Source: Oscillospiraceae bacterium (GTDB lineage Bacteria > Bacillota > Clostridia > Oscillospirales > Oscillospiraceae). Taken from it: 64,000 bases of DNA. Positions 2,871 to 27,476 of the stretch are shown one piece after another. The DNA is taken from positions 131,115-195,114 of the forward strand of contig CADBJU010000002.1 of NCBI GenBank assembly GCA_902795045.1, in the 5' to 3' direction. The notes under the pieces are model-generated. The model was given only the letters and a program-made list of their open reading frames with translations. It had not been told where the DNA came from and did no database searches. Both the position numbers and the translations under genes were made by a program. Numbering within the stretch: the stretch's first letter is position 1; each line of letters opens with the position of its first letter.

Positions 2871-3320
2871 GGGAGGCTTCGGGCAGAGGATGGAGAGCCG
2901 GTTTTTTCCCACATCCCGGACTGGTATGCATGGGAGCGCGACTGTGTGCGCAAAGAGCTTGAGGAGGGCCGTTACCGGCTTGAGCTGCCGGTGGTGATCC
3001 GCATGCTGGTGGACACCAAGTGTCTCTATACCGTGGGTGAGGGAATGCTTATTCATACGTCTGAGGGTTTTCATCTCACCGGCTGCGGCGGGAAGCTGGA
3101 GTACCGCCAATCCCCTGTCTTCTCCTACAGTCTGAACGCGGACTATTTCTGGTACGAGCTGGGCGACATGATCAGCATCGGGGACATGAACGCGCTCTAC
3201 TACTGCTTCCCCAAAACAGCGGGCGACGTGGTCGCAAAGACGCGCCTTGCGGCGGAGGAGCTGTTTAAGATGCAGCGGCAAGAAAAACAACGGCTGAAAA
3301 CTATCTGCCAATCAGAATGA
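2871..3320 (+). pseudogene. orphan C-terminal fragment of an acyltransferase-associated domain (possible truncated or frameshifted gene)
   Basis: Frame is open from 2871 (after TGA 2868-2870) and reads ...EPVFSHIPDWYAWERDCVRKELEEGRYRLELPV..., with no ATG. The first in-frame start is GTG 2946. From memory this matches the C-terminal region of long PlsC-like lysophospholipid acyltransferases; no N-terminal acyltransferase domain is present upstream. Confidence 0.45.
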
Positions 3321-3332
3321 CGGAGGTACGCG

Positions 3333-3908
3333 ATGAACAAACCGATACTCTATGTGAATGCCTGTGTGCGAAAAAACTCCCGGACAAAGCTCCTGGCGGA
3401 AAAGCTGCTGGCAAGGCTGGGCAGGCCGATTGAAGAAGTCCGTCTGGAGGAGATCTCTTTTCCGGTCTTTAACGAAGCCTTTAATGACAGGCGTGACCGG
3501 CTGATCGCGCAGGGGGATTTTCAGGATCCTCTGTTTGACCTTGCACGGCAGTTTTCCGAAGCGGACACCATCGTGATCGCGGCTCCGTACTGGGACCTCT
3601 CCTTCCCGGCCATGCTCAAGCAGTATCTGGAGCAGATCACCGTCGTGGGCCTCACCTTCAAATATTCGGAGGAGGGGGTGCCGGTCAGTCTGTGCCGGGC
3701 GAAGAGACTGTTTTATGTGACCACGGCGGGCGGCAATTACGTGCCGGACGATTACGGCTTCGGCTATGTAAAGGCGCTGGTGCAGAGCTATTACGCGATT
3801 GCGGATGTTCGGAAGATCGAAGCCGACGGACTCGATATCGTCGGCGCCGATGTTGATGCCATCATGGCAGAGGCGGAGGAAGCCCTGAACGCTATGGAAT
3901 TGGACTGA
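3333..3908 (+). CDS. flavodoxin-like-fold NAD(P)H-dependent FMN oxidoreductase (azoreductase/quinone reductase-like)
   Basis: GGAGG RBS. ILYVNACVR...SRTK N-terminus and IVIAAPYWDLSFPAMLKQYLEQI motif are typical of AzoR/NQO-like flavodoxin-fold reductases. Confidence 0.8.
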   Translation: MNKPILYVNACVRKNSRTKLLAEKLLARLGRPIEEVRLEEISFPVFNEAFNDRRDRLIAQGDFQDPLFDLARQFSEADTIVIAAPYWDLSFPAMLKQYLEQITVVGLTFKYSEEGVPVSLCRAKRLFYVTTAGGNYVPDDYGFGYVKALVQSYYAIADVRKIEADGLDIVGADVDAIMAEAEEALNAMELD

Positions 3909-4001
3909 CACTGCCGTGACCTCGTATTGATTATTGCCTGCCGATTTGGTAGAATATTATTAAGCTTATCATCATGCTGTCATAAAAAAGGGGGGTTATT
4001 C

Positions 4002-5192
4002 ATGCAGTACAGAAAGGACCGAAGCGGCAACGACCTGAGCATCCTGGGCTACGGTTGCATGCGCTTTTCCAAGAAGGGCGCGGGCATCGACATCGCCAAA
4101 ACCGAGACGGAGCTCATGGCCGCCTACCGCGCCGGTGTAAACTATTTTGACACAGCCTACATCTATCCCGGCAGCGAGGCTGCCGTGGGCGAGATCTTCG
4201 AGCGCAACCACATCCGCGACAAGGTCCATATCGCCACGAAGCTCCCGCAGTACCTGATCGGGAACCGCGCCGCGCTCGACCGCTTCTTCAATGAGGAGCT
4301 CAGCCGTCTGCGCACTGATTACGTGGACTACTACCTGATGCACCATCTGACCGATGTAGCCATGTGGGAAAAGCTCAAGACCGTCGGAATCCTGGACTGG
4401 ATCCGGGAAAAGAAGGAGTCCGGGGCTATCCGAAACATCGGCTTTTCCTATCACGGCAACACGGAAAACTTTCTGAAAATCCTCAATGACTACGACTGGG
4501 ATTTCTGCCAGATCCAGTATAATTACCTCGACGAGGTGGCCCAGGCGGGCCGGGACGGTTTGCACGCCGCCGCGGCGAAGGGCGTGCCCGTCATGATCAT
4601 GGAGCCGCTGCGGGGCGGCAAACTTGTCAATCTGCTGCCGGAAGGCGCGAAGAAGGCCATGCAGGAAAGCGGCCGCGACTGGAGCCCCGCCGAGTGGGGC
4701 CTGCGCTGGCTGTATAACCAGCCGGAGGTGACGGTGGTCCTGTCGGGCATGAACTCGCTGGAAATGGTGGAGGCCAACTGCCGCACGGCAAGTCAGGCGC
4801 AGGCCGGGTCCCTGACAGAGGCGGACCTGGAGACCCTCGAGAAGGTCAAACGGGCCATACGGGAGAAAGAAAAGGTTGGCTGCACGGGCTGCCGCTACTG
4901 CATGCCGTGTCCCAAGGGGGTGGATATCCCCGGCACCTTCCGCAGCTACAACACCATGTACGCCGAGTCAAAGCTCGCCGGGCGCACCCAGTTCATCCAG
5001 ACGGTGGGCCTGACACGGGAACCGGCCTTTGCCTCCCAGTGCATACGCTGCGGCAAATGCGAGCAGCACTGCCCCCAGTCCATCCCCATCCGCGACAAGC
5101 TCCGGGAGGCAGACCGCGCCCTGCGGCCCTTCCCGTACAACGTTGCCATTCAGGCCGCCCGCGCCTTCATGTTCCGCAAAGCGAAAAAATAA
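4002..5192 (+). CDS. aldo/keto reductase with C-terminal 4Fe-4S ferredoxin-type cluster motif
   Basis: GGGGGG RBS before the ATG at 4002. N-terminus LSILGYGCMRF and FDTAYIYPGSE are AKR hallmarks. C-terminus has CxxCxxC...CP patterns (CTGCRYCMPCP, CIRCGKCEQHCP). Confidence 0.85.
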   Translation: MQYRKDRSGNDLSILGYGCMRFSKKGAGIDIAKTETELMAAYRAGVNYFDTAYIYPGSEAAVGEIFERNHIRDKVHIATKLPQYLIGNRAALDRFFNEELSRLRTDYVDYYLMHHLTDVAMWEKLKTVGILDWIREKKESGAIRNIGFSYHGNTENFLKILNDYDWDFCQIQYNYLDEVAQAGRDGLHAAAAKGVPVMIMEPLRGGKLVNLLPEGAKKAMQESGRDWSPAEWGLRWLYNQPEVTVVLSGMNSLEMVEANCRTASQAQAGSLTEADLETLEKVKRAIREKEKVGCTGCRYCMPCPKGVDIPGTFRSYNTMYAESKLAGRTQFIQTVGLTREPAFASQCIRCGKCEQHCPQSIPIRDKLREADRALRPFPYNVAIQAARAFMFRKAKK

Positions 5193-12665: not shown

Positions 12666-14030
12666 TTACGACTGCGATTGGCAAACCCAGGACAGCGTAT
12701 AGCTGTCCGAGTTTACCTCGAGCTTTGTCTCCGCGCCCATCAGCAGCGGGTAGTTGACATCTCCGTGTCCTGCGGGGAAACCGAAGGCGACCGGCACCTT
12801 AAAATGTTTCAGAAGCTGTCTTGTGATCATTTCCGCCACAGACTGGAACAGGCCGCCCCTGGCCTCGCCGTAGTTGCCCTCGCCGTCGGCGGGGAGCTCC
12901 GTCCACTGTCCGAAGACGATGCCGGCGGCGTTATCCAGGATGTCCCTGTGCTTGAGGATCGTGAGATAGCGGTGGATGTGCTGCATGTTCTCGCCCACCT
13001 CTTCAAGGAACAGGATATAGGGCTTATCAAGTTTCGTGCTGTCATAGGCGGTGTCCAGAGTCGCGGTGAAGGTGGAGAGGTTGCCGCCGATCAGGATGCC
13101 CTCCGCCGTGCCCTCGCGGCACAGGGAGTTGGTCTGGCACTCATAGGTGGGGATCTCGCCTGCCATGATATGCTGCTCTGCCTCAATGCAAGCCTCCGGG
13201 AGGCCATCAAAGGCAGCGCTCATGCAGGCGTGGATCGAGGGAAGCCCGGCGGTGGTCCAGGCCGCGTGATAGGCCGTGATATCACTGTAGCCGATAATGG
13301 GCTTGCCCGCGGAGGCTATCAGATCCCCGGCGGCATCAATGACCTCGGTCGCGCCGTAGCCGCCGCGTACGCAGAAGATAGCCTTGATCTCCGGGTCCTC
13401 GATCGCCCAGCGCAGATCCTCCATGCACTCCTCAAGCGTGCGTACCTGGGCATAGACATGCTTGCCCTCCACAGGCTCAAAGCCCCAGCTTCGAAGGCCC
13501 GCGACCGTTGCCGCTGTCTGCTCCTCGCCGGGCAGGGCGGAGGGAGAAATGACCGCGATCTTGTCCCCGGGAGAGAGGAAGTAGCCTTCGGGCATGCCCT
13601 CGTATTTCGTATAGCCGGTGATCCGGATGCCGGTGTCGGTGCCTTCGTTGAGGTACGAAAGTGTAGTGCCGTCCGCGGAAAAAACAGGCTCCATGACAGG
13701 GGCGGGCGCGGGGCTGCTTTCGGGCTCCGGCTCCGGATAAACCTGCACGAAGCCGAGCTCCGCGGGGTCTGTATCGCTCTCGCTGTCGCCGTCGAAATCC
13801 TCACCGGTGCTGATCTGCAGCTCGTCATTTTCTATGACATACTGCTTATAGCTGCCGTCGGCATACAGGTACAGGACCGTGGAGGAGGGTTCCCCGCTCC
13901 CCTCTTCGGTATCGGCCACGTCATAGGGCGCGACATATACGGCGCTCGGCGCCTCAGCCGTGACAGACGGGATCAGTGTGAAGAAGAGGGCGCACACGAG
14001 GAAAATGCTGAATAGTTTTTTCATGCTCAT
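12666..14030 (-). CDS. exported S66-family LD-carboxypeptidase/MccF-like serine peptidase
   Basis: GGAGG RBS 9 nt before the ATG at 14030. Signal peptide MSMKKLFSIFLVCALFFTLIPSVTA-EA, an acidic about 150 aa linker region, then S66 motifs (IIGYSDITAYH nucleophile Ser, FGFPAGHG His). Confidence 0.85.
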   Translation of the reverse strand: MSMKKLFSIFLVCALFFTLIPSVTAEAPSAVYVAPYDVADTEEGSGEPSSTVLYLYADGSYKQYVIENDELQISTGEDFDGDSESDTDPAELGFVQVYPEPEPESSPAPAPVMEPVFSADGTTLSYLNEGTDTGIRITGYTKYEGMPEGYFLSPGDKIAVISPSALPGEEQTAATVAGLRSWGFEPVEGKHVYAQVRTLEECMEDLRWAIEDPEIKAIFCVRGGYGATEVIDAAGDLIASAGKPIIGYSDITAYHAAWTTAGLPSIHACMSAAFDGLPEACIEAEQHIMAGEIPTYECQTNSLCREGTAEGILIGGNLSTFTATLDTAYDSTKLDKPYILFLEEVGENMQHIHRYLTILKHRDILDNAAGIVFGQWTELPADGEGNYGEARGGLFQSVAEMITRQLLKHFKVPVAFGFPAGHGDVNYPLLMGAETKLEVNSDSYTLSWVCQSQS

Positions 14031-14985: not shown

Positions 14986-16353
14986 TCATTTTCTCTTGAG
15001 CGCCGGGTTTCTTTCATAAAAGGCCTGCTTGTCGGCGTACATCCGCTCATCCGCGATGCGAAACGCCGTTTTGATATCCGTCGTGCCGTCCGACCAGTAC
15101 TCCCCGATGGCAAAGCTGACGTCGGTGTTTTTCATCACATCGCCGCGCAGGCGGTCCAGCTTTTTATAAAAGGTGTCCAGGCTGATCGAGTCGGTGATGA
15201 CGATGAATTCGTCTCCGCCGGTGCGAAACAGATCCTCCTGATAGAATACCTTCCGCAGGATCTCCCCCGCCTGTATGAGCAGTCTGTCCCCTGCCTCATG
15301 GCCATCCCGGTCGTTGACGGTCTTGAGACCGTTGAGGTCGATGTTGACGATGCCGAAGGGGGTATTCTCCCGACGGGAAACCAGCTCCATGCGCTTTTTC
15401 ATCGCGCGCCGGTTGCCGAGTCCCGTCAGCGTGTCCACCTGGCTGAGCGTCTCCAGTTTCTGCAAAAGCAGGTGGTTATAGATCTCCGCGCCCAACACCA
15501 GGGACATGAGTTCCATCAGTTCCTTGACCTCGACGACCTTGGCGGTGTCGAAGTTGAGAGTATATAGATAGCCGATCACGTCCTTCCCGCGCCGAAGCGG
15601 GATCAGCACCAGGCTTTCCACCCGGTTCATGCGAAGGGATCGAGCCCAGGCGGGGTTTTCCCGTTCGATCTGGGCAAAGTCCTGTTCGCCCTGTATAATG
15701 ACGGCATTGCTCACGCCGAGCATCCGCTCCCAGGAATCCAGGACCTCATAGGATATCGTCTCAACGCCGTTTTCGAATACCGGCTTTGCGTCCCCGGAGA
15801 GCACGCGGCAGAAGTCGACCGCCTTCTTGTCCTCGCGGTCAATGAGCAGGATCTGGGCGGCCTTCGCGTCCGCCTCCTCCAGGATGACCCGGAGCACCTC
15901 GCGCACGTTTGTCTGGAAATCCGCGGGATGGAGCAGCATCAGGCTTGCCCGGATGACCGCGTTTGCGGTGCCGACGGATACGGCGGACATGCGTTCGGCC
16001 TCCGAGTGCTTTGTAAACTCAAAGATAAACTGGCAGCAGCCCCTGTCCTCCCGGTCAGATTCCAGCGGGATCAGGGTCTGGTCCGTCCAGGTGTCCAGCG
16101 CCCGGGTCTCCACATAAGCATGCATGCGCTGCTTCAAAATCGCCGCGCGGAAGCAGTAGTCCTCAAATTTATTATCCTGCGGCACAAGCTCGCTGTAGAG
16201 CATGCCGTCATAATACCCGGGGCCCATGACGGCTTTGTAGACAGCGTTTGCCGCAATGATGCGGATATCACCATAGCCGCCGTCTCCGGCCTTGTCCACG
16301 GAGATCACGCAGCACGGCATGGCAACCTGATCGACGAATTTCTGATAATCCAT
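14986..16353 (-). CDS. PAS-like/GAF/GGDEF diguanylate cyclase
   Basis: Canonical DTLTGLGNRRA and RTGGDEFIVIT motifs. A preceding GAF-like block (SLVLIPLRRGKDVIGYLY). Confidence 0.9.
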   Translation of the reverse strand: MDYQKFVDQVAMPCCVISVDKAGDGGYGDIRIIAANAVYKAVMGPGYYDGMLYSELVPQDNKFEDYCFRAAILKQRMHAYVETRALDTWTDQTLIPLESDREDRGCCQFIFEFTKHSEAERMSAVSVGTANAVIRASLMLLHPADFQTNVREVLRVILEEADAKAAQILLIDREDKKAVDFCRVLSGDAKPVFENGVETISYEVLDSWERMLGVSNAVIIQGEQDFAQIERENPAWARSLRMNRVESLVLIPLRRGKDVIGYLYTLNFDTAKVVEVKELMELMSLVLGAEIYNHLLLQKLETLSQVDTLTGLGNRRAMKKRMELVSRRENTPFGIVNIDLNGLKTVNDRDGHEAGDRLLIQAGEILRKVFYQEDLFRTGGDEFIVITDSISLDTFYKKLDRLRGDVMKNTDVSFAIGEYWSDGTTDIKTAFRIADERMYADKQAFYERNPALKRK

Positions 16354-17509: not shown

Positions 17510-17548
17510 CAGCCGCCCTCCAGTCGGAGGGCGGCTGCTGTTTCATTT
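17510..17548. terminator. terminator between convergent lipoprotein and C11 peptidase genes
   Basis: cagccgccctcc-agtc-ggagggcggctg hairpin followed by a T-rich tract. Confidence 0.7.
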
Positions 17549-17561
17549 TACGCTGTGTAAC

Positions 17562-20057
17562 TCAGTAATCCCGGCCGAAGAAGCCCTCGTCGACCTTCCA
17601 TTCGGTGATGGCTCTGCCGGATGCCGTGGCGCCGATGACCCGGGAGTAATAGTTGTCGCCGCGGGAATCCGAGATCACGGCCGTGGTGAGGTAGTAGCCC
17701 TTGGGCAGCTGCTCACGGGTGACTTCGATACGGGCGGAAAACCGGATACTCTTACCCTCAACAGACTTTGTCTCGCCGGTCTTGTAATTCGTCTGTACAT
17801 AGAGAGGCACGATTTTCTTGCCGGCCTCCGGCTCAATGATGGAACGGGTGCTTGCCAGGGAGTTGATCGCGTTATCCTCATCCACCTTGCGGATGCCGCT
17901 GATGGCGCACTCGCCGGTATCCCTGTCACAGGAGATCATCAGATAGGCCTCATTGCCGTCATAATTGATATGCGCCTTGTACTCGATGCCCGCCGCGGTG
18001 GAGGAAACCGGTTCCACATACAGCGGTTCACCGTTGAGGCAGATCCAGGTACCGTCAAAGGTGCTTTCGAGGCCGCCCTCTCCGTCAAGGCGCAGCGCAT
18101 CCGCGCGGCCATAGTAGGTGATGGTTTGCTCGTCATCATCATACTTGCCGATCTCAAGCTGATATCCGGTCATGAGGCGCTGGAGCTCAGCATTCACGGG
18201 GATCACAAAGCCTTCGGAGTCGATAGCGGGTTCCGCCCTGCTGAAGTCGTGGAAGGCGGTGATATCCAGAATCTCAGGCTCTTTGTCGGTAAGCGTGGCG
18301 ACATACTTCTTTAGCTCGTCATTGAGGCAGCCCGCCTGCTTGTAGTAATACAGAGATCTGACGCTGTCACTGTCGCAGATGTCATAAACATACTCAAGGT
18401 AGTACACCAGACCGTTCAGGTCGCTGACATCAGTGGGGATGTAAACGGCCATGCCGGTGGAATCGCTGAGGGTGCCGCTGTCGCGATGGTACAGCACCGC
18501 TTCTTTGATGAGGTCCTTGATGCGGCTGCTCTGCTCGGGGTAGCTGTCGATGGTGTAGTCGACGTAGTTGCCGAGGTCCGCGGTATTGAAGACATTCGCG
18601 TGGTTGACACCGTAGCGCGTGGCGCGTACACCGCAGCGGCCGATATCCGCCAGCACGCCGAGATCCTGCACAGCGTCGACGAGCTGCGCCCGGCATAGCG
18701 CGCTGTAGGCATCATAGAGCTCACTTGCCTTGCTTGCGTCGATGACTGAGAAGGTTGTGTTGTTTTCAAGCATCGGCACATTGATGTTCTGGGTCACATA
18801 GTAATCCGTATAGGAATCGGCGATCTTCCGGCCGACCAGGGCGGGACTCATGGTGGGATCGTCCGTCAGGGCCTGCAGCCAGGGGCCGTAGTCCCAGCCG
18901 TCGCCGGGGATGACCTCCTCACTCAGGCAGTAGTAGCTTGCAAAGCCTTCAAGGGCGTGCGTCACCTCAAGGCAGCCCATGAGGCAGGCGTCAAAGCCGA
19001 TGATGTCAAAGGCAGGCTTTGCGCTGTTGGGACGGTAAACGCTCGAGAGTGCCTCGCGGATATTCTTGAGGGATAACATCTGGTCGAAGATGGAGTCCTG
19101 ACCGTAGCCGAAGGGGCCGCCGCCGTGGTCCCAGAGGACCAGCATATTGTGGTCGGCGGGGTACTCGTCCCGGCAGAAGCGCAGGAAGCCCGCCAGGGTG
19201 TCCGGCTCGGACGCCGGCTGCAGGGGCAGATCGGCCACCTCGGTGAACTTGCCGCCCTTATACAGGAAGCGCTGGGTGCGGTTCGGATTGATGAGGTCAT
19301 TCGTCCAGTGGGTGGCGCCGCCGGTCTGAATGACGATCTGGATATTGTCCCCCCAGACGCCGGAGGTCATTTCCGAAATGTCAGCCGAGGCCATGCCGGT
19401 ACGCTCGGAGACATGGACATCCTGCGTTACCACCGTGGAGGAGGCAACCGGCACATCGGGATAGTAGAAAAACTTCGGCAGCTCCAAACCGTTGTCCGCA
19501 AGCTCGGTGTTGTAGCGGTTGAGGCGGTCCATGGTCGCCATCCGGCTTTCATTCGCGGCGTCCTGTGCCGCGTCTCTCGTCATGACCGTGGTCACATAGG
19601 ACAGATCGTTTTCCGTATCGTCCTCCAGGTCCGCGCCGACGATATAGACGCTGATCGTCCAGGTTTCGTCCGCCTTGGACTTCGGCAGGGCGTCGATACG
19701 CGCTGCCCCCTCCTCGTCAATGGGAGACAGCTCATAGATCTGCTTCTTCTGTTCCTCGCTGAGGGGCTTGTTGCGCTGCTCCATGATGCTTGTCCGCAGA
19801 ATGGGGACAACGATTTCGTTGAAGATCGTCTCCATATTCGCGGCCAGCACGCCGACGATGAGCAGCAGCACCATCACGACCTTCAAAACCTTTTTCAGCC
19901 AGAGGTTCCACACCTTCTTGGGCCAGGGCGCATAGCGATAGTACTCCCGCTGCTCCTGCTTCTTGGCCCGCTTGGCCGCCTTCCAGCGCGCCCGTTTTTC
20001 CTTGCGCGTCAGCCGCTCCTTTCGGGCGGGTGCCGCAGTCTTTTCGTTTTCGTTCAT
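17562..20057 (-). CDS. membrane-anchored clostripain-family (C11) cysteine peptidase
   Basis: Basic cytoplasmic N-terminus, one TM (VLKVVMVLLLIVGVLAA), and catalytic His/Cys contexts LVLWDHGGGPFGYG and IIGFDACLMG typical of C11. The start ATG overlaps the stop of the upstream PP2C gene (ATGA). Confidence 0.85.
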   Translation of the reverse strand: MNENEKTAAPARKERLTRKEKRARWKAAKRAKKQEQREYYRYAPWPKKVWNLWLKKVLKVVMVLLLIVGVLAANMETIFNEIVVPILRTSIMEQRNKPLSEEQKKQIYELSPIDEEGAARIDALPKSKADETWTISVYIVGADLEDDTENDLSYVTTVMTRDAAQDAANESRMATMDRLNRYNTELADNGLELPKFFYYPDVPVASSTVVTQDVHVSERTGMASADISEMTSGVWGDNIQIVIQTGGATHWTNDLINPNRTQRFLYKGGKFTEVADLPLQPASEPDTLAGFLRFCRDEYPADHNMLVLWDHGGGPFGYGQDSIFDQMLSLKNIREALSSVYRPNSAKPAFDIIGFDACLMGCLEVTHALEGFASYYCLSEEVIPGDGWDYGPWLQALTDDPTMSPALVGRKIADSYTDYYVTQNINVPMLENNTTFSVIDASKASELYDAYSALCRAQLVDAVQDLGVLADIGRCGVRATRYGVNHANVFNTADLGNYVDYTIDSYPEQSSRIKDLIKEAVLYHRDSGTLSDSTGMAVYIPTDVSDLNGLVYYLEYVYDICDSDSVRSLYYYKQAGCLNDELKKYVATLTDKEPEILDITAFHDFSRAEPAIDSEGFVIPVNAELQRLMTGYQLEIGKYDDDEQTITYYGRADALRLDGEGGLESTFDGTWICLNGEPLYVEPVSSTAAGIEYKAHINYDGNEAYLMISCDRDTGECAISGIRKVDEDNAINSLASTRSIIEPEAGKKIVPLYVQTNYKTGETKSVEGKSIRFSARIEVTREQLPKGYYLTTAVISDSRGDNYYSRVIGATASGRAITEWKVDEGFFGRDY

Positions 20058-21904
20058 TCGTTTACCTGCGCTTTCTTGTTTTCAGTAATCTGTCCTGTAC
20101 TTCCCGCCGGTCGCCGACTTGCTCCCGGCCTGCCCTTGTATTCCAAACACAGCATGGTCAGGTCGTCAAACTGCGTGGCCTCGCCGGTAAAGGCCTCCAC
20201 GTCCGCCTTGACCCCCTCCAGGATGTGCTTTGGGTCTTTCTCTGCGTTTTTGTTAAGTGCGGCCTCCATGCGTTCCATGCCGTAGAAGGCGCCCTCTGCA
20301 TTATTGGCTTCGGGCACGCCGTCGGTATAGACGAAGACGGCATCGCCCGGCGCCATGTTGATCTCATAGTCCCGGTATTTGGATTTTGCCAGCGCCCCCA
20401 CCACGAGGCCGTGCCGGTCCTTAAAGATACGGAACACCCCGTCGGTCCCCCGGACCACCGGGTACTCGTGCCCGGCGTTTGCGCATGTGAGCACACCGGT
20501 TTTCAGATCGAGGATGCCGAGCCAGACGGTGACGAACATTTTGCTCTTGTTGTTCTTGCAGATCTCCGCGTTCACCGCGCCGAGGATCTCGCTGGGACTG
20601 CCGCCCATCTGCGCGCGATAATTGATGAGGATCTTGGAGGACATCATGAACAGCGCCGCCGGGACCCCCTTGTCGGACACGTCCGCGATCAGTACCGCAA
20701 GGTGGCCCTCGTCGATGAGGAAGAAATCATAGAAATCCCCACCCACCTCTTTGGCGGGCGTCATGCTGGCATAGAGATCAAATTCGTCCCGGTCGGGAAA
20801 GGCCGGGAAAATACTCGGCAGCATGGATTCCTGGATCTGGGAGGCGGTGCGCAGCTCGGTACTGACGCGTTCCTTCTCGGCCGTGGCCCGGGTCAGGTTC
20901 TCGGTGTAATCCACGATGCGGTTTTCCATGGAACGTATCTCATGATAGAGGTCCGTGACCTCGTCATTGCCCGGGATATCCAGGTCGATGACATCCTCCT
21001 TGGTGAAGGCCCGGTCTTCCTTGGCAAAGCGGGTGGCCGCTTCAGCAAGCTTCCGCAGAGGCTTGACGGCGGTGCGCTGGAGTACCGCCACACTGACGGC
21101 GATCGCGCCCGCCAGCAGGATCGCCATAAAGACGAGGCTCTGCCTGAGGAAGGAATAGCGCTCGCCGATGATGTCGGTCATGTTGATGTCAACACCCGCG
21201 ACCGCGGCAGGCTTCTTCGTATCCCAGTCGATCACCGGTTCGATCGCGGTGAGAAGCCATCCGAAGGCCGAGCGGTACACGATCGGCGGTACGGCGACAT
21301 TGCCCTCGTATTCCTCAAACTCAGCGACCGGCTGCTCGATCGTGCCGATATAAAACATGCTTTCGTCAGGGTCCGCGATGTTATAGGTGACGCTGCCTTC
21401 GCCATACTGGTAATACGCGGCATCAACGTCAAAGTACTCCTTGATCCCGAGAAGGCCGGAGAGGATGTCCTCATAGTCGTCCAACAGCGTCCATGCTTCG
21501 TTCTGCGTGTCATGCTCATCGTCAAAAACAGGATCATTTTCCGTGCTGACGGCTTCTGGCTGCAAAAAGAAGCTCTGTTGGCTGCGCATCCAGTCCCCGA
21601 TCGGCGTTTCGTCGTTTATGTCCTTCGCGCGCTTTTGTACCTCCCGGAACTCATCCGTGTTGACCTTGTCCCAGAAGTACATCAGCATATCGGCCGATAC
21701 GTTGTTGGCACAGGCCTCCGCCGCACGGCGGACGGTCCGGTCGTATTTATCGTCGACTCGCTGGCAGAAGATATAGTAGCTGATCGCCGTAAGGCCCGCC
21801 GCGACAAGCAGCATGCTGCAGATCACAAGCGCGCTCAGCTTTACCTGCATGCTTACGCGGTGCGGCTGCTTTTCCGACCTGTTCTGTTTCCTTGTCTCTT
21901 CCAT
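20054..21904 (-). CDS. membrane sensor PP2C (SpoIIE/RsbU-type) serine phosphatase with extracytoplasmic Cache-like and HAMP domains
   Basis: TM, about 230 aa external block (FGWLLTAIEPVID, AGVDINM), TM, HAMP (AVKPLRKLAEAATRF), then PP2C motifs (EVGGDFYDF, IADVSDKG, VYTDGVPEA, DDLTMLCL). Confidence 0.9.
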   Translation of the reverse strand: MEETRKQNRSEKQPHRVSMQVKLSALVICSMLLVAAGLTAISYYIFCQRVDDKYDRTVRRAAEACANNVSADMLMYFWDKVNTDEFREVQKRAKDINDETPIGDWMRSQQSFFLQPEAVSTENDPVFDDEHDTQNEAWTLLDDYEDILSGLLGIKEYFDVDAAYYQYGEGSVTYNIADPDESMFYIGTIEQPVAEFEEYEGNVAVPPIVYRSAFGWLLTAIEPVIDWDTKKPAAVAGVDINMTDIIGERYSFLRQSLVFMAILLAGAIAVSVAVLQRTAVKPLRKLAEAATRFAKEDRAFTKEDVIDLDIPGNDEVTDLYHEIRSMENRIVDYTENLTRATAEKERVSTELRTASQIQESMLPSIFPAFPDRDEFDLYASMTPAKEVGGDFYDFFLIDEGHLAVLIADVSDKGVPAALFMMSSKILINYRAQMGGSPSEILGAVNAEICKNNKSKMFVTVWLGILDLKTGVLTCANAGHEYPVVRGTDGVFRIFKDRHGLVVGALAKSKYRDYEINMAPGDAVFVYTDGVPEANNAEGAFYGMERMEAALNKNAEKDPKHILEGVKADVEAFTGEATQFDDLTMLCLEYKGRPGASRRPAGSTGQITENKKAQVNE

Positions 21905-21908
21905 GGCG

Positions 21909-22316
21909 CTACAGAACCTTCCTGATGGTCAGGATGTTCTTCCCTTCCCTGTACTCATAGCGGACATCGTCCATGCTCTTTTTTACCATGTAGATGCCAA
22001 GGCCCCCGATCTTCCGGTCTCTGGCGGAGAGCGTGGTATCCGGGTCGCTTCTCTCGAGGGGATTGAAGGGCCTGCCCCCATCCGTGAAAGTGATGGAAAC
22101 AATACGCGGTTCACGCTGCGTCTCCATCGCCACGGTCACCTCGCCGCCGTCGTCGTCAAAGCCGTATTTGGCAATGTTGCTGTACAGCTCGTCGATGGCA
22201 ATGTCGATCTGGGCCTTTGTCTTGAGCGCGCAGCCCATGCGTTCAAGCTCCCGGTTGACAAATTCGATGATCGCCGGGATATTTGTCTGTCTCGCGGGCA
22301 ATGTCAATTCTTTCAT
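21909..22316 (-). CDS. RsbW/SpoIIAB-like anti-sigma-type serine kinase (HATPase)
   Basis: GGAGGG RBS 8 nt before the ATG at 22316 (ORF-track start 22346 is possible). N-box DELYSNIAKYG, G-boxes DGGRPFNP and GGLGIYMVKK. Confidence 0.85.
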   Translation of the reverse strand: MKELTLPARQTNIPAIIEFVNRELERMGCALKTKAQIDIAIDELYSNIAKYGFDDDGGEVTVAMETQREPRIVSITFTDGGRPFNPLERSDPDTTLSARDRKIGGLGIYMVKKSMDDVRYEYREGKNILTIRKVL

Positions 22317-22354
22317 CCGCCGCACCCTCCGTATATTTGCGGGCACGCGGCCAG

Positions 22355-22657
22355 TCAGACAATGTTCATGATTTCAAGAAAACCGGTCACGTCGAACACA
22401 TCGTGAATGATGTCATTGACATTGCGAAGCTCCATCTTCTTGCCCTGATCCTCCAGCGTCTGCTCGAAGGTGAGCAGCACGCGCAGACCGGCCGAGGAAA
22501 TGTAGTCGAGCTTTTCACAGTCCAGCTTCAGCTCGGAGATGCCGTCGAGCATCGGCTCCACTTCCCTCTGGAATTCCGGCGCGGTATTGGTGTCCAGGCG
22601 CCCGTCCAGCGCGACGTCGAGGACGCCGTTTCCGAGCTTCTTCGTGATATTGAGCAT
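22355..22657 (-). CDS. STAS-domain anti-sigma-factor antagonist (RsbV/SpoIIAA-like)
   Basis: 100 aa. The phosphorylatable-Ser context LDYISSAGLRVLL is typical of SpoIIAA/RsbV. Confidence 0.9.
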   Translation of the reverse strand: MLNITKKLGNGVLDVALDGRLDTNTAPEFQREVEPMLDGISELKLDCEKLDYISSAGLRVLLTFEQTLEDQGKKMELRNVNDIIHDVFDVTGFLEIMNIV

Positions 22658-22684
22658 GGTGTTTCCCTCCTGAAAATGACTGAT

Positions 22685-24022
22685 TTATAAATACTGATAC
22701 TTGGAACGATATTTATTCAAGGCATACGCCGTGACAAAAGCGCTCAGAAGCTCCGCCGCCGGCCAGGCGCTCCAGAGTCCCGGACCGCCGAAGAGGGCCG
22801 TCAGGCCGTAGAGGCAGCCGCTCAGGATCACAAAGGAGCGGATAAAGGACAAAAGTCCCGACACGACGCCGTTGCCGAAGGCGGTGAAGAGCCCGGAGCC
22901 GAAGATATTGAAGCCGATAAACAGGCACGCGGGCAGGATGATCAGATAGCCGAGAGAGGCGATGCGGTGAAACTCCGTCCCCTCCTTGAAGAAGATCCCG
23001 ACCATGGGGCCGCGCAGCAAGAACAGCAGCAGCATCATGACCACGCCGAAGATCAGGTTCCACCGGATGCTCAGGCGGAAAACTCGCTTTCGCATCTCCA
23101 CGTTCCCGCTGCCGTAGTGGAAGGAGAATACCGGCTCCACGGCGGAGGTGTAGCCCATGAAGACCATCGAGATCAGCACCTGCACATAGGTGATCACTGC
23201 GAGCGCGCTCACGCCGACCTCGCCGTAGCAGCGGTAGGCCAGATGATTCATGAACAGCACCGTGATGCCCTCGGCCAGATTGGAGATCATGTCGGACGAG
23301 CCGTTAAAGCAGATGCCGCCGATCTCCTTCATGTCGGGCTTGGCAAGCTCCAAATGATAGGAGCTTTTGCGCGCGATGATGTAAAACCACACGGCGTAGA
23401 CGATGGTGCTGCAATAGCCGATCACGGTAGCAAGCGCCGCCCCGCGAATGCCCATGTGGAGCTTCGCCATAAAAACATAGTCCAGCACACAATTGAGCAC
23501 ACCGCCGATCATGATGACGATGGCCGCCACCACGGTTTTCCCCTCGCCGATGATGAGGATGCCGAGCTCGGACTGCAAAAGGATCGCGAGGGAAAAGCTG
23601 CTCAGGGTCATATAGTAGGGGCGCAGGTACTCGATATTTCCCTCTGTTGCGCCGCAAAGGCGCATGATGGGATCGGCAAAAAGCAGGCAAACCGCGGTAA
23701 AGACGATGCCGCAGATCACCGTAAAGGTCATCACGCGCGAGAAGGTCTGGCCCGCCTCTTTGCGCTTGCCCTCGCCGACCTTGCGGACGATGACGGCGTT
23801 GCCGCCGGTGCCGATCATGATGCCGACGGCGATGAAAAGGCTGATGATGGGATAATAGAGGTTGATGGCGCTGATGGCGAGCTCCCCCACATAGCGCTCG
23901 ATAAACAGCCCGTCCACCATCTGGTACACCCCGATAAAGACGAAGGTGAAGATGCTGGGGGCCACAAATTTCAGCAGTGACCAGAAGGTAAACTCCTGGG
24001 ACAGCTCTTTTTCCTGATCCAT
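22685..24022 (-). CDS. MATE-family efflux transporter
   Basis: 445 aa, 12 predicted hydrophobic helices. The N-terminal LLKFVAPSIFTFVF..YQMVDGLFI pattern is typical of MATE/NorM proteins. Confidence 0.9.
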   Translation of the reverse strand: MDQEKELSQEFTFWSLLKFVAPSIFTFVFIGVYQMVDGLFIERYVGELAISAINLYYPIISLFIAVGIMIGTGGNAVIVRKVGEGKRKEAGQTFSRVMTFTVICGIVFTAVCLLFADPIMRLCGATEGNIEYLRPYYMTLSSFSLAILLQSELGILIIGEGKTVVAAIVIMIGGVLNCVLDYVFMAKLHMGIRGAALATVIGYCSTIVYAVWFYIIARKSSYHLELAKPDMKEIGGICFNGSSDMISNLAEGITVLFMNHLAYRCYGEVGVSALAVITYVQVLISMVFMGYTSAVEPVFSFHYGSGNVEMRKRVFRLSIRWNLIFGVVMMLLLFLLRGPMVGIFFKEGTEFHRIASLGYLIILPACLFIGFNIFGSGLFTAFGNGVVSGLLSFIRSFVILSGCLYGLTALFGGPGLWSAWPAAELLSAFVTAYALNKYRSKYQYL

Positions 24023-24028
24023 GGCCGC

Positions 24029-27019
24029 TTACTTCTTTCTGCTGAAGATGCCCGCGATGGTCTTGAAGAAGTTCTTATGATCTTCGAGCTTATCCTTGAT
24101 CTCGCCGATGGTCACGTCCGCCTGGGAGTTATGGGTCACGAGCGCCTGGGCAAGCTTTACATAGATGTCCTTGAAACGCTCCATGCTCTCCTCCTTGTAG
24201 CGGGAGGCGGCAAAGTCGATCATCAAGGTCAGACCGTCGGCCCCGTCGAGGATCTCCATGTCCAGGATGGTCTGGGAGGCCGCCTGGTTCTGGCGGATAT
24301 CTACCATCTCCACGTCAAAGCCGTCCTTGCCGCCCATGTCGCGGATGTCCTGCTGATAGAGAAGATAGGCGCATTCGCTCTCCCCCGCCTGGTTTCGGCT
24401 GTCCACATAGGGGTAGCAGCTGTGCTCGATGCCCTTCTGCACCTGCTCGTGCACATCGGCAAAGACATTGCGCAGGGTGTCCCGGTCCTTGAAGCGGATG
24501 CCGATGGGCAGATCGCGGAAGAGAAGGCCCACCGTGGTCATGTTCTCCATATCCTCGCGCCCGTTGTAGATCCAGGAGATCTTCACATCCGGCGTGCGGT
24601 TGTAGATGGAGATGGCAAGCGCCGCCACCGTGATGAAAAACTCGTTGCGGCTGATCTTATAGGCCTTCTCCATGGCGTTCATCTGGGGCTGGAGGATGCC
24701 GAGGGGCGCAAAGAGCTCGCCCATCTCGTTGTCTCTCGACTCGTGGTCGGTCTGCGGGAAGCAGGACCAGTCGACCCGGTCATAGCGCTTTTCAAAGTAG
24801 CGGCGGCTCTCTTCATAGAAGGCGGAGTTTACCGCGTCCTCGCGGCGCTGGAGCATGAGGTAATAGAAGTCGGGATCGGCCTCGAGGCCAAGATAGGTCT
24901 TGCCGATGTCCGACATGAACACCTTCAGGGAAGTGCCGTCAAAAACAGAGTGGTGCACGTCGAAGAAGACATAGCCCGCCTTCTCGGTCTCAAACACCCG
25001 GCAGCGGCAGAGTCTGCCGCCCACGATCTTGAAGGGATAGACCAGCGTATCGCGCACATAGCGCAGCTCAAACTCGGTGAGCTTTTCCACATCTATGTCC
25101 CAAAGCTCCTCCGGGTGGTAGCTCTGCACCAACTCCCGGTCACGGTTCCAGGCAAATTTCGTCAGCAGGGCCGGATGGTGGGAGATGACGGCCTTGAGCG
25201 TCTCGGCCATCTTCTCCATGTCGATGGCGTCCTTGTCAAGCTTCATCATGGAGTAGAGGTTATACATCGTGGAGTTTGGCGTATAGAGCTGATAGTCCAC
25301 CATATAGAGCTGTTCGGTGGTGAGGGGGTGCTCTTTTCCCCGCGCCTCCTGCTCCTTCACCTCGGGCGCGACGCCGTCGTTCTGAGCAAGGCTGTCCATA
25401 TAGAGCTTTGCGATCTTCTCCGGCGTGCGGCCGCGGAAGATGAGTCCCGCGTTCAGGCCCTCGAGGGCGCACCTTGTCACAACGTCAATAGAGCCGAGAG
25501 AGTCGCCGCCCATCTCGTAGAAATCGTCCTCGATGCCGACGCGGTTGAGGCCCAGGACCTTGGCCATCGCCTTGCAGATCACCTTCTCGACATCGTTTGT
25601 CGGGGCCAGGTAGCTGCTCTGGAAGTCCTTCGCGTCCGGCGCGGGCAGGGCCTTGCGGTCAAGCTTGCCGTTGGCCTTGAGGGGGACGCTATCAATCTTC
25701 ATGAAGTAGGCCGGGATCATGTAATAGGGCAGGCGCTTTAATAACTCCTCGCGCAGGGCCGCCGGGTCAAAATGCACATCCGCCGTATAGTAGGCGCAAA
25801 GGTAGCTCTTGCCCTCCTCCTCGAAGCCTCGGGCCGCGCACCAGTCGATATTGAGGGCCTGCTTGACGGCGGCCTCGATCTCGGCGGGCTCGATGCGGTT
25901 GCCGTTTATTTTGATCATGTCGCCGCTGCGGCCGAGCAGGACATAGTTGCCGTTTTCGTCCTTTGCCGCGAGGTCCCCCGTGTGGTAGACGCCGTTTACG
26001 AAGGCCTTCGCCGTCTCCTCGGGGAGATTGATGTAACCGCGCACATAGGGATTCGTAAAGCAGAGCTCGCCGGTCTCGCCGTCGGCGACCTCTTTTCCGT
26101 CCTCGCCGATGAGCGTGATCTCCGTCTCCACCTGGGGCTTGCCGATGGGGCAGGTCTCGTAGGGCTTGTCGATCTTGAAAAAGCCCACGGCAAAGCCGCT
26201 CTCGCTGCATGCGTAGATGTTGATGAGGTCGAGGTTTTTGTTATAGAGGTTGTTGGCGGGCTCGCTGCCCACGAACAGCATGCGCAGGAAGGGGCCGGTG
26301 TTATTGCCGATCTTGCGCACATAGGACGGGGTCAGGAAGGTGATGGTGATGCGCTTGGAGAGGAAGAACTTCGCAAGCGCCGCCGTATTTTTGATGGTTG
26401 AATAGGATACGATATAGTTCTTGCCGCAGTAGACATTCAGCGCCGCGAGGATAACGATGACGGTGGCGACAAAGTTCATCGGGGCCAGGGTCGCAAGGCG
26501 GTCCTTCTCGTTGAAGGGCACCTCGCCGTCGATGCGGATGGAGTCGATAGCGCGCTGGAGATTGCCGTATTCGTGCAGCACGCCCTTGGGGTTTCCTGTC
26601 GTGCCGGAGGTATAGATCGCGTAGGCCGCGTCATGCTCGTCCGGGTCCTCGTGGCCGGCAAGGGGTGTTACACGCATGATGTCGTCCCAGTTGTCGGCGC
26701 TGATTTCCAGCTTGCAGCCGCAGTCCGTGCGGATATAATTGATGCGCTCTGGGGCGTAGGTATCCTCCACCAGCGCCCAGGCGGCTCCCGCCTTCCAGAC
26801 ACCGATCATGGCGATCACCGGCAGCACGCCGCGCGGCAGGTCGATGAGCACGAAGTCCTCCCGCCCGATTTTGTTCTCCTTCAGCCATGCGTAGACACGG
26901 CCCGACATATCGTCCAGCTGCGCATAGGTGACGCCCTTGGCATGCAGATCGTCAAAGAGGATCGGCGCGCCGGGGTTTTGCTCGGTATACTGCTGAAGCT
27001 TATCAATGATTGTTTGCAT
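24029..27019 (-). CDS. single-module nonribosomal peptide synthetase, A-T-C architecture
   Basis: GGAG RBS 8 nt before the ATG at 27019 (ORF track starts at TTG 27025). A-domain cores YTSGTTGNPKGV, YHTGDLA, GRSGDMIKINGNRIEPAEIE, NGKLDRKALP. Carrier motif FYEMGGDSLGS. C-domain motif HHSVFDGTS. Confidence 0.9.
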   Translation of the reverse strand: MQTIIDKLQQYTEQNPGAPILFDDLHAKGVTYAQLDDMSGRVYAWLKENKIGREDFVLIDLPRGVLPVIAMIGVWKAGAAWALVEDTYAPERINYIRTDCGCKLEISADNWDDIMRVTPLAGHEDPDEHDAAYAIYTSGTTGNPKGVLHEYGNLQRAIDSIRIDGEVPFNEKDRLATLAPMNFVATVIVILAALNVYCGKNYIVSYSTIKNTAALAKFFLSKRITITFLTPSYVRKIGNNTGPFLRMLFVGSEPANNLYNKNLDLINIYACSESGFAVGFFKIDKPYETCPIGKPQVETEITLIGEDGKEVADGETGELCFTNPYVRGYINLPEETAKAFVNGVYHTGDLAAKDENGNYVLLGRSGDMIKINGNRIEPAEIEAAVKQALNIDWCAARGFEEEGKSYLCAYYTADVHFDPAALREELLKRLPYYMIPAYFMKIDSVPLKANGKLDRKALPAPDAKDFQSSYLAPTNDVEKVICKAMAKVLGLNRVGIEDDFYEMGGDSLGSIDVVTRCALEGLNAGLIFRGRTPEKIAKLYMDSLAQNDGVAPEVKEQEARGKEHPLTTEQLYMVDYQLYTPNSTMYNLYSMMKLDKDAIDMEKMAETLKAVISHHPALLTKFAWNRDRELVQSYHPEELWDIDVEKLTEFELRYVRDTLVYPFKIVGGRLCRCRVFETEKAGYVFFDVHHSVFDGTSLKVFMSDIGKTYLGLEADPDFYYLMLQRREDAVNSAFYEESRRYFEKRYDRVDWSCFPQTDHESRDNEMGELFAPLGILQPQMNAMEKAYKISRNEFFITVAALAISIYNRTPDVKISWIYNGREDMENMTTVGLLFRDLPIGIRFKDRDTLRNVFADVHEQVQKGIEHSCYPYVDSRNQAGESECAYLLYQQDIRDMGGKDGFDVEMVDIRQNQAASQTILDMEILDGADGLTLMIDFAASRYKEESMERFKDIYVKLAQALVTHNSQADVTIGEIKDKLEDHKNFFKTIAGIFSRKK

Positions 27020-27059: not shown

Positions 27060-27088
27060 ATTTTACCACTGCAAATTCACTCACGCAA
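27060..27088 (-). promoter_or_regulatory. sigma-A type promoter (extended -10) for the NRPS cluster
   Basis: Minus strand TTGCGT, 17 nt, TGgTAAAAT; about 35 nt upstream of the NRPS start. Confidence 0.55.
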
Positions 27089-27156: not shown

Positions 27157-27294
27157 GGCACGCTGCAAAATGCTTAGCATTTTGTCATCCTGAGGCATAA
27201 AATGACGAAGGATCTTTCTTTTGAAGGTTTTTGCAAACTTTCAGGGAAAGATCCTTCGCTTACGCTCAGGATGACACGCATTTTGCAACGTGCC
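27157..27294. repeat. long imperfect palindromic intergenic element (family E); acts as terminator for the upstream small gene
   Basis: Left arm ggcacgctgcaaaatgc..gtcatcctgag..cgaaggatctttc mirrors right arm gaaagatccttcg..ctcaggatgac..gcattttgcaacgtgcc. On the minus strand the hairpin is followed by TTTTT. Confidence 0.7.
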
Positions 27295-27330
27295 CATCAT
27301 CAAACTCTCAGCCCATGCGGGCCGCCGAAA

Positions 27331-27408
27331 TCACGCACGCTTGATCAGAATGAAAGCAGCAGCGCAGACGCAGAGACCGCCGATAACCAGAGCAATAATC
27401 TTTTTCAT
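27331..27408 (-). CDS. 25-aa hydrophobic small membrane peptide (MKKIIALVIGGLCVCAAAFILIKRA)
   Basis: Not in the ORF track (below size cutoff). GGAGGAAC RBS 7 nt before the ATG at 27408, TGA at 27333-27331. It has its own near-consensus promoter and a hairpin+T5 terminator. Confidence 0.55.
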   Translation of the reverse strand: MKKIIALVIGGLCVCAAAFILIKRA

Positions 27409-27447: not shown

Positions 27448-27476
27448 ATTTTATGTCATAAGTGCTTTCCTGTCAA
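27448..27476 (-). promoter_or_regulatory. near-consensus sigma-A promoter for the small peptide gene
   Basis: Minus strand TTGACA (27476-27471), 17 nt, TAAAAT (27453-27448). Confidence 0.6.

Follow-up and report, generated by a model that had tools for sequence, protein, structure and literature searches.

A 64,000-nucleotide stretch of contig CADBJU010000002.1 (positions 131,115 to 195,114), referred to here as the window, carries a real operon of six co-directional minus-strand open reading frames (ORFs), and its host is an uncultured rumen Oscillospiraceae bacterium. From the first gene to the last, the operon encodes a one-module nonribosomal peptide synthetase (NRPS)-like protein with adenylation, thiolation and condensation (A-T-C) domains, a MATE transporter, a STAS protein, an RsbW-type kinase, a PP2C phosphatase that combines transmembrane (TM), Cache-like and HAMP segments, and a TM-anchored C11 peptidase. 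The initial annotation of this DNA had presented the six genes as one system, a proposal that did not survive comparison with related loci: the full array was found only where the C11 peptidase is at least 70% identical to that of the window, and C11 accompanies the NRPS-like gene in 2 of 25 lineages. The conserved core is the one-module NRPS-like enzyme together with a MATE transporter or a carboxylesterase, linked to a sigma-less partner switch made up of STAS, often PP2C and sometimes the kinase. Compared with the six-gene system, the finding takes in fewer genes and a broader range of taxa; the observation behind that system was confirmed and its interpretation was partly supported.

Partner-switch genes near the NRPS-like gene

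Neighbourhoods of the NRPS-like gene were collected for eight diverged members individually and by a JGI metagenome scan (80 loci, 97 to 47% identity). Dereplication at 90% identity left 67 clusters, 47 to 100% identical to the window protein, and 25 of these 67 lineages had informative flanks, that is, at least 1.5 kb upstream and at least 1.8 kb downstream of the NRPS-like gene. Neighbouring genes were counted with hidden Markov models on six-frame ORFs, and 43 informative C11 loci without an NRPS-like gene served as the control. At least one partner-switch gene was present within 6 kb of the NRPS-like gene in 21 of the 25 lineages, against one of the 43 control loci (L033), with a Fisher p of 1.4e-12 for metagenome contigs that are phylogenetically dependent beyond the 90% dereplication. 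Because of this difference the link between the NRPS-like gene and the partner switch is regarded as non-random and evolutionarily maintained. Within the same distance, STAS was found in 20 lineages, PP2C in 16 and the kinase in 8, while a MATE transporter was found in 12, a carboxylesterase (COesterase) in 11, one or the other in 22, an S41 peptidase in 4 and the C11 peptidase in 2. The expected co-occurrence of all six families across genomes was thus borne out for the NRPS-like gene and the switch, and not for the C11 peptidase, the kinase or the MATE transporter, the last being replaced by the esterase in 11 lineages.

The link is kept in at least five gene orders: A, NRPS-MATE-STAS-[kinase]-PP2C-[C11 / S41 / 475-aa secreted protein]; B, [PP2C-[kinase]-]STAS-NRPS-COesterase; C, PP2C-[kinase]-NRPS-MATE-STAS; D, PP2C-STAS-kinase-NRPS; and E, (PP2C+kinase fusion)-(HD_4+STAS+APH)-CDF transporter-STAS-NRPS, which includes one human-gut contig. 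Proximity that survives rearrangement is a classical sign of functional coupling. STAS is the steadiest partner of the NRPS-like gene; in B-type orders it lies 2 to 32 nt upstream, often with no kinase or phosphatase gene nearby. The MATE or COesterase gene directly follows the NRPS-like gene, always 0 to 43 nt downstream, and the carboxylesterases lack signal peptides, which indicates a cytoplasmic location.

The NRPS-like family comprises more than 120 clusters (90% identity) at 75% or more identity to the window protein, nearly all of 995 to 999 aa. Between genomes of the Oscillospiraceae type and those of the dockerin-bearing Ruminococcus type, the NRPS-like proteins are 75% identical, the STAS proteins 44 to 51% and the PP2C proteins 57%. 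A full-text search that covered few subscription journals, and a rumen survey of biosynthetic gene clusters (PMC8241843), gave no description of an NRPS-STAS/PP2C cluster. In agreement with the initial annotation, which knew of no system of this composition, we could not find the pairing described.

The NRPS-like enzyme and the switch proteins

Pfam recognized AMP-binding (166 bits), PP-binding (25.2 bits) and Condensation (140 bits) domains in the NRPS-like protein. Its A domain has the core motifs YTSGTTGNPKG and ANGKLDR and, in an alignment to LgrA, Lys517; the GGDSL motif of the T domain, with the phosphopantetheine Ser, and the HHSVFDG motif of the C domain are intact. Two A-domain motifs read differently from those of LgrA: FDxS appears as NFVAT, with Val184 aligned to the Asp of LgrA FDGS (the Asp235 position), and NxYGPTE appears as NIYACSE. 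Asp235, by which binding of an alpha-amino group is judged, is therefore replaced by Val184, and the lack of an Asp at this anchor predicts that the enzyme activates and loads a carboxylic acid other than an alpha-amino acid. The ten-residue specificity code, read by eye against LgrA with PheA numbering, is approximately V-A-I-F-F-G-I-F-A-K, that is, hydrophobic and without the alpha-amino anchor. The specificity positions are invariant in 12 sequences of 75 to 100% identity, as are Val184, NIYAxSESGFA, GGDSL and HHxxFDG, and from this invariance the protein is taken to be an intact enzyme under constraint. The C domain is terminal, with an intact HHxxxDG and no carrier domain after it, which suggests that its acceptor is a free nucleophile; its best match in the PDB was no better than E=8e-12. 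The C-terminal tail NFFKTIAGIFSRKK is conserved and looks like an amphipathic membrane-targeting helix.

The STAS protein matched the Pfam family with 59.9 bits and TIGR00377 with 75 bits (cut-off 53). The Ser in its YISSAGLRVLL motif aligns with Ser58 of SpoIIAA and Ser56 of RsbV, and the motif is invariant in nine NRPS-linked STAS proteins, even where no kinase gene is nearby. The kinase matched HATPase_c_2 with 77.6 bits and has the N-box DELYSN together with DGG and GGLG boxes; its gene is absent from 17 of the 25 lineages and is missing even in the close relatives L009, L011, L096 and L087.

In the phosphatase, hydropathy placed TM1 at residues 22 to 46 and TM2 at 256 to 277, with an extracytoplasmic segment of about 210 residues (47 to 255) between them. 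Pfam scores were 165.8 bits for SpoIIE and 23.9 bits for HAMP, the latter slightly below its cut-off. The metal-binding motifs GGDFYD, DVSDKG, TDGVPE and QFDDLT are invariant, and Foldseek placed the catalytic domain nearest to RssB, SiaA, SpoIIE and Rv1364c (E about 1e-13). The extracytoplasmic domain that the initial annotation had assigned to this protein was confidently modelled by AlphaFold2 when taken alone (pLDDT 89, pTM 0.84). Its Foldseek neighbours are all Cache/PDC domains (Tlp3, an Oscillibacter chemoreceptor, CitA, DcuS and KinD), although the resemblance is weak (E about 1e-3, TM-score 0.5 to 0.58 by target and 0.3 to 0.38 by query, over about 100 columns) and a Pfam search of the protein gave no Cache match. 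The NRPS-linked PP2C sensors differ by lineage: Cache-like plus HAMP in A-type orders, multi-TM in L088, L093 and L130, and TM, Cache and HAMP fused to a kinase in L154 and L110.

In line with the initial annotation, tblastn with SigF and RpoE queries found no sigma-70-family gene in the 64 kb of the window, a weak negative. None was found either in the 181 fetched loci with such queries, run without a positive control, or in the Pfam tables of the neighbourhoods. The results thus support, as a weak negative can, a sigma-less switch in the window and across the fetched loci.

Unusual STAS fusions were seen beside the NRPS-like gene in several lineages. They join STAS to an HD_4 domain (RelA/SpoT-type HD) and an APH-like kinase (576 to 602 aa), to an LCM-type methyltransferase (409 aa) or to APH alone (377 to 393 aa), and lie at L153 6954-8762, L182 5033-6763, L151 183-1412, L168 15658-16887, L141 8577-9758 and L093 15802-16935. 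The 23-kb locus L093 is a hot spot of partner-switch modules, with three STAS genes, two kinase/PP2C pairs, Y_phosphatase3, PAP2 and a 570-aa MATE transporter around a STAS-NRPS-COesterase trio.

Candidate output of the partner switch

Partner switches without a sigma factor are frequent in Clostridia, and for few of them is an output established. The abundant and highly conserved NRPS-like family of rumen and human-gut Clostridia is a concrete candidate for such an output, its probable product being an acyl amide or ester that is exported. The reading we tentatively favor, with a probability of about 0.45, is that the switch controls this enzyme post-translationally through STAS, whose phosphorylation state would be set by the sensor PP2C and the kinase. 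STAS is the putative contact point because it is the steadiest partner, lies so close to the NRPS-like gene in B-type orders and keeps its Ser motif invariant. The NRPS-like enzyme would join two common metabolites into a small acyl amide or ester, which the MATE transporter would export or, in other lineages, the carboxylesterase would process. The Cache-like domain of PP2C would sense a signal outside the cytoplasm and PP2C would dephosphorylate phosphorylated STAS; unphosphorylated STAS would then bind the NRPS-like enzyme, perhaps on the carrier domain, and thereby activate or inactivate it. The switch would be reset by the kinase, whether its gene lies in the locus or elsewhere. Only in the lineage of the window would the C11 peptidase have joined the operon, at its 3' end, where it is co-expressed and not required. 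If true, this would be, as far as we could find, the first post-translational control of an NRPS-type enzyme by a partner switch, and it would imply that gut ecosystems contain a conserved small molecule under environmental control.

STAS-type proteins that directly switch enzymes have been described in SiaC-SiaD, HsbA-HsbD and BgrV-BgrR (PMC8457831), and partner switches with an enzyme as output include SiaABCD of Pseudomonas aeruginosa, HsbR/HsbA-HsbD and BgrV-BgrR (PMC8457831, PMC7647112). The present system resembles SiaABCD in its membrane HAMP-PP2C protein (E=1e-13 between the catalytic domain of the window and SiaA-PP2C, 6k4e; 82 bits to NF038263, SiaA), its small kinase, its small phosphorylatable antagonist, the lack of a sigma factor and the presence of an enzyme in the same operon. 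It differs in having an NRPS-like A-T-C protein in the place of a diguanylate cyclase and, as antagonist, a Ser-bearing canonical STAS in the place of the DUF1987/SiaC type with Thr. The NF038263 score is also far under the 700-bit cut-off, and the kinase is often absent from NRPS loci. With the RsbU/RsbV/RsbW-sigB and SpoIIE/SpoIIAA/SpoIIAB-sigF switches it shares the phosphorylatable Ser of STAS, a HATPase_c_2 kinase with N and G boxes and a SpoIIE/RsbU-type PP2C. Unlike in those switches, the searches of the window and of related loci brought up no sigma factor gene, the NCBIfam equivalog scores are all far under their cut-offs and the phosphatase carries a Cache-like sensor outside the cytoplasm. 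Two genes downstream of the operon (14986-16353, minus strand) lies the gene for a GGDEF protein of 455 aa, which has an N-terminal region of 300 residues without annotation and is conserved in L008; it was rejected as a SiaD-like output, since GGDEF genes occur near the NRPS-like gene in only 2 of the 25 lineages.

Binding of a STAS domain to a carrier protein has a precedent in YchM-ACP, as cited in PMC3340395. In gut Clostridia, A, carrier and C proteins produce acyl amides (PMC13310621): the Oaa fatty-acid-amide pathway of Coprococcus eutactus (OaaA, OaaACP and OaaC) has the same set of functions as the window enzyme in a gut Clostridia host, a donor that is not an amino acid and a C domain that acts on a free small-molecule acceptor. 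The Oaa proteins are free-standing, whereas the three domains are fused in 996 aa in the window, and the Oaa C motif is (D/H)HxxxDS, against HHSVFDG here; the parts of that paper that were searched do not mention switch genes. On the C-domain motif and architecture, membership of the Oaa family was rejected and the pathway is taken as an analogue only.

Several observations weigh against control of the NRPS-like enzyme through STAS. Four of the 25 lineages (L114, L138, L140 and L175) have the NRPS-like gene with MATE or COesterase and no switch gene nearby, the pair being set among housekeeping genes (PGK-TIM, transketolase, glycogen phosphorylase), and the switch is therefore either dispensable there or encoded in trans. 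The putative contact between STAS and the NRPS-like enzyme is drawn from gene adjacency, the Stachelhaus positions were read by eye from the LgrA alignment, and the sigma factor search was run without a positive control. Since the counting models were derived from NRPS-linked members, divergent STAS or kinase genes in the control loci were possibly undercounted. Finally, the sole apparent PP2C-NRPS fusion is probably chimeric, or else a rare deletion. In this 1524-aa ORF (L152 5084-9658), a TM-sensor-HAMP-PP2C protein cut right after QFDD is fused in frame to the NRPS-like protein. It is a singleton on a contig of 2.5x coverage, within a cluster of 578 members of which all but a few of those listed are 997 aa long, and it clashes with the usual gene order of its lineage; we thus considered it unreliable as a Rosetta stone.

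It is rather unlikely, in our estimate, that the switch acts on the product of some other locus, be it a sigma factor or a different enzyme, with the NRPS-like and MATE genes as co-expressed cargo. Clostridia are rich in partner-switch modules, as L093 by itself illustrates, clusters without a kinase gene must rely on one encoded in trans, and 17 loci have an orphan response regulator close to the cluster. The association, however, spans families and survives shuffled gene orders, STAS alone stays with the NRPS-like gene in the minimal STAS-NRPS-COesterase clusters, the SigF and RpoE queries found no sigma factor in the 181 loci, and GGDEF genes are near the NRPS-like gene in only 2 of the 25 lineages. 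The orphan response regulator itself (Response_reg plus a Trans_reg_C-like domain, about 270 to 283 aa, starting MNAICVDDEA) is found near A-type clusters, for example at L103 9158-9961 and L096 19130-19963, and has no homologue in the 64-kb window.

The initial annotation had suggested a quorum-like feedback in which the NRPS product, exported by the MATE transporter, or a fragment made by the C11 peptidase, binds the PP2C sensor. The MATE gene does directly follow the NRPS-like gene, the Cache/PDC-like domain is confidently modelled and C11 is translationally coupled to PP2C. This loop is weakened by the invariance of the NRPS specificity residues, set against linked sensor modules that are unrelated between lineages, and further by the cytoplasmic esterase in place of the exporter in 11 of 25 lineages, by the scarcity of C11 and by the lack of a nearby PP2C gene in 9 of 25. 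We consider it unlikely, and less probable than STAS-directed control of the NRPS-like enzyme.

A covalent switch, in which the NRPS-like enzyme would acylate STAS, for example at the conserved Ser, and the carboxylesterase would deacylate it, in parallel to phosphorylation or in competition with it, appears very improbable. It would fit the minimal STAS-NRPS-COesterase trios, which have gaps of 0 to 30 nt and no kinase or phosphatase, as well as the esterases without signal peptides, the Ser that is invariant even without a local kinase and the terminal C domain without a defined acceptor. The presence of MATE in the esterase position in half of the lineages indicates instead a small-molecule product, and use of a folded protein as acceptor by a C domain is, to our knowledge, without precedent. 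In a milder form of this idea, STAS would dock on the carrier domain and gate the NRPS-like enzyme according to its phosphorylation state. A fortuitous juxtaposition of six unrelated neighbours in a compact genome, as might be imagined from C11 homologues in many contexts and from a kinase, MATE and peptidases that come and go, is barely credible and already contradicted for the NRPS-STAS/PP2C link by the 21/25 against 1/43 count and by very short or overlapping junctions that are kept in relatives.

The operon in the window and its accessory genes

The coordinates of the six genes and of the flanking features are listed in the table. Pfam and NCBIfam scans bore out every domain call for the six proteins, and the coordinates, domains and junction gaps of the initial annotation (6, 27, 8 or 38, 4 and -4 nt from the NRPS-like gene to C11) were exact. 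For the MATE transporter, Pfam MatE scored 116.6 bits in two stretches and TIGR00797 148.0 bits, just over its cut-off of 147.4.

Table. Features of the operon and its flanks (positions in the window)
Feature	Position	Strand	Basis or remark
NRPS-like A-T-C protein, 996 aa (998 aa from upstream TTG, 27025)	24029-27019	-	ATG start with GGAG Shine-Dalgarno
MATE efflux transporter, 445 aa	22685-24022	-	Pfam MatE; start 6 nt past NRPS stop
STAS single-domain protein, anti-sigma-antagonist type, 100 aa	22355-22657	-	Pfam STAS, TIGR00377
RsbW/SpoIIAB-type serine kinase, 145 aa (GTG 22346) or 135 aa (ATG 22316)	21909-22346	-	Pfam HATPase_c_2
Membrane sensor phosphatase, 616 aa: TM1, Cache/PDC-like, TM2, HAMP, PP2C	20054-21904	-	Pfam, hydropathy, AlphaFold2, Foldseek
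Membrane-anchored clostripain-family C11 peptidase, 831 aa	17562-20057	-	Peptidase_C11; start overlaps PP2C stop by 4 nt
Promoter-like site TTGCGT-17-(TG)TAAAAT, extended -10 TG, upstream of NRPS	27060-27088	-	Sequence
GC-rich hairpin between convergent C11 and 321-aa lipoprotein genes	17510-17537	.	Folding energy
Predicted lipoprotein, 321 aa	16538-17503	+	Lipobox LTAC; no Pfam family

A single transcript for the six genes, as proposed earlier, is plausible. The proposed promoter fails the -35 criterion of a consensus scanner (3/6 match), but a similar site, TTGCnn-17-TAnnAT with an extended -10, is kept at the same distance upstream of the NRPS-like gene in L007, L071, L009 and L096. The terminator placed after the last gene was recovered as a strong hairpin with a 14-bp stem (dG -33.8 kcal/mol, z = -4.15) and a weak U-tract, and it is probably bidirectional. 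Inside the unit, terminator-like sites are at chance level (11 found against 10.0 expected), and the short or overlapping gene junctions are conserved among relatives. The GC content of the unit, 0.54 to 0.59, is ordinary for the window. A riboswitch or other RNA leader was rejected, as an Rfam scan of the whole window gave nothing above the gathering score. The same or near-identical arrays were found on bovine and rumen metagenome contigs and in metagenome-assembled genomes (MAGs) of Oscillospiraceae and Candidatus Limivicinus.

The C11 peptidase matched PF03415 with 133.5 bits (E=2e-38) and the clostripain model TIGR02806 with 25 bits, against a cut-off of 550. It has a basic cytoplasmic N-terminal stretch, one TM helix, a dyad of His311 (DHGGG) and Cys358 (DACLM) that is invariant in 16 homologues, and a conserved C-terminal extension of about 320 aa. 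Clostripain and PmC11 are examples of MEROPS C11 peptidases, and the window protein shares with them the Peptidase_C11 domain and the conserved His/Cys dyad; unlike them it is about 830 aa long, with the basic tail, the TM anchor and the C-terminal extension.

A scan of the C11 alignment against 185,579 genomes, one per GTDB species, yielded 80 loci of 98 to 34% identity in Oscillospiraceae, Lachnospiraceae (including cultured Butyrivibrio) and other hosts. The full six-gene array occurs only at 70% identity or more (L007, L008, L071 and L010), and the kinase is already gone in L009, L011 and L096. Among the 43 informative loci with a C11 of 69% identity or less, none has an NRPS-like or MATE gene within 6 kb, and partner-switch genes occur only in L033. 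This Lentihominibacter MAG has a multi-TM PP2C at 2937-4475 and, at 12672-13332, a STAS gene paired with a kinase gene, neither adjoining C11, and the co-occurrence is probably a coincidence. All-against-all clustering of the flanking ORFs of 72 C11 homologue loci showed no constant neighbour, and C11 was accordingly rejected as an anchor of the system. C11 is thus a lineage-specific accessory and not core, probably a co-transcribed surface protease, and its linkage is confined to the close relatives of the window. Its place outside the conserved unit redirects experimental effort to the NRPS-like and switch genes.

In A-type clusters, PP2C is often followed by a gene for an exported protein: C11, S41 alone or together with a lipoprotein, or a secreted protein of 475 aa without a Pfam family. 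Other A-type loci have a response regulator, unrelated genes or the contig end at this place, and S41 can also stand just upstream of the NRPS-like gene. A distinct S41 family with the N-terminal sequence FPLFFIDGVDDLPYV lies beside C11 homologues even where there is no NRPS-like gene (L012, L013, L018 and L027) and is present at L009, L071 and L096 as well. This loose recurrence suggests a pairing of S41 and C11 as surface proteases. The 321-aa lipoprotein, an uncertain member of the unit, recurs beside C11 or S41 in the clade of the window. In the window its gene converges with that of C11, and in L087 (18265-19236), L105 and L107 a homologue of 64% identity follows S41 in the same direction. 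Taken together, these genes suggest that the Limivicinus-like clade has a loose accessory module of envelope proteases.

Two further features lie upstream of the operon. A 138-nt nested imperfect inverted repeat (27157-27294; arms I1, I3 and I2), which includes GTCATCCTGAGCGTAAGCGAAGGATC, sits between the NRPS promoter and a 25-aa ORF. Only the near-identical strain contigs L001 to L003 carry it. The 97%-identical L007 lacks it at the corresponding place and has an intergenic region shorter by about 117 nt; the repeat resembles an insertion of a miniature inverted-repeat transposable element. The 25-aa ORF encodes the hydrophobic peptide MKKIIALVIGGLCVCAAAFILIKRA (27330-27408, minus strand), with an AAGGAGG Shine-Dalgarno sequence and a promoter at 27448-27476 that matches sigma-70 in 11 of 12 positions. 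Neither feature was accepted as a component of the system: the ORF has an identical counterpart in L007 and none in L071, L009 and L096, and the repeat is lacking even in L007.

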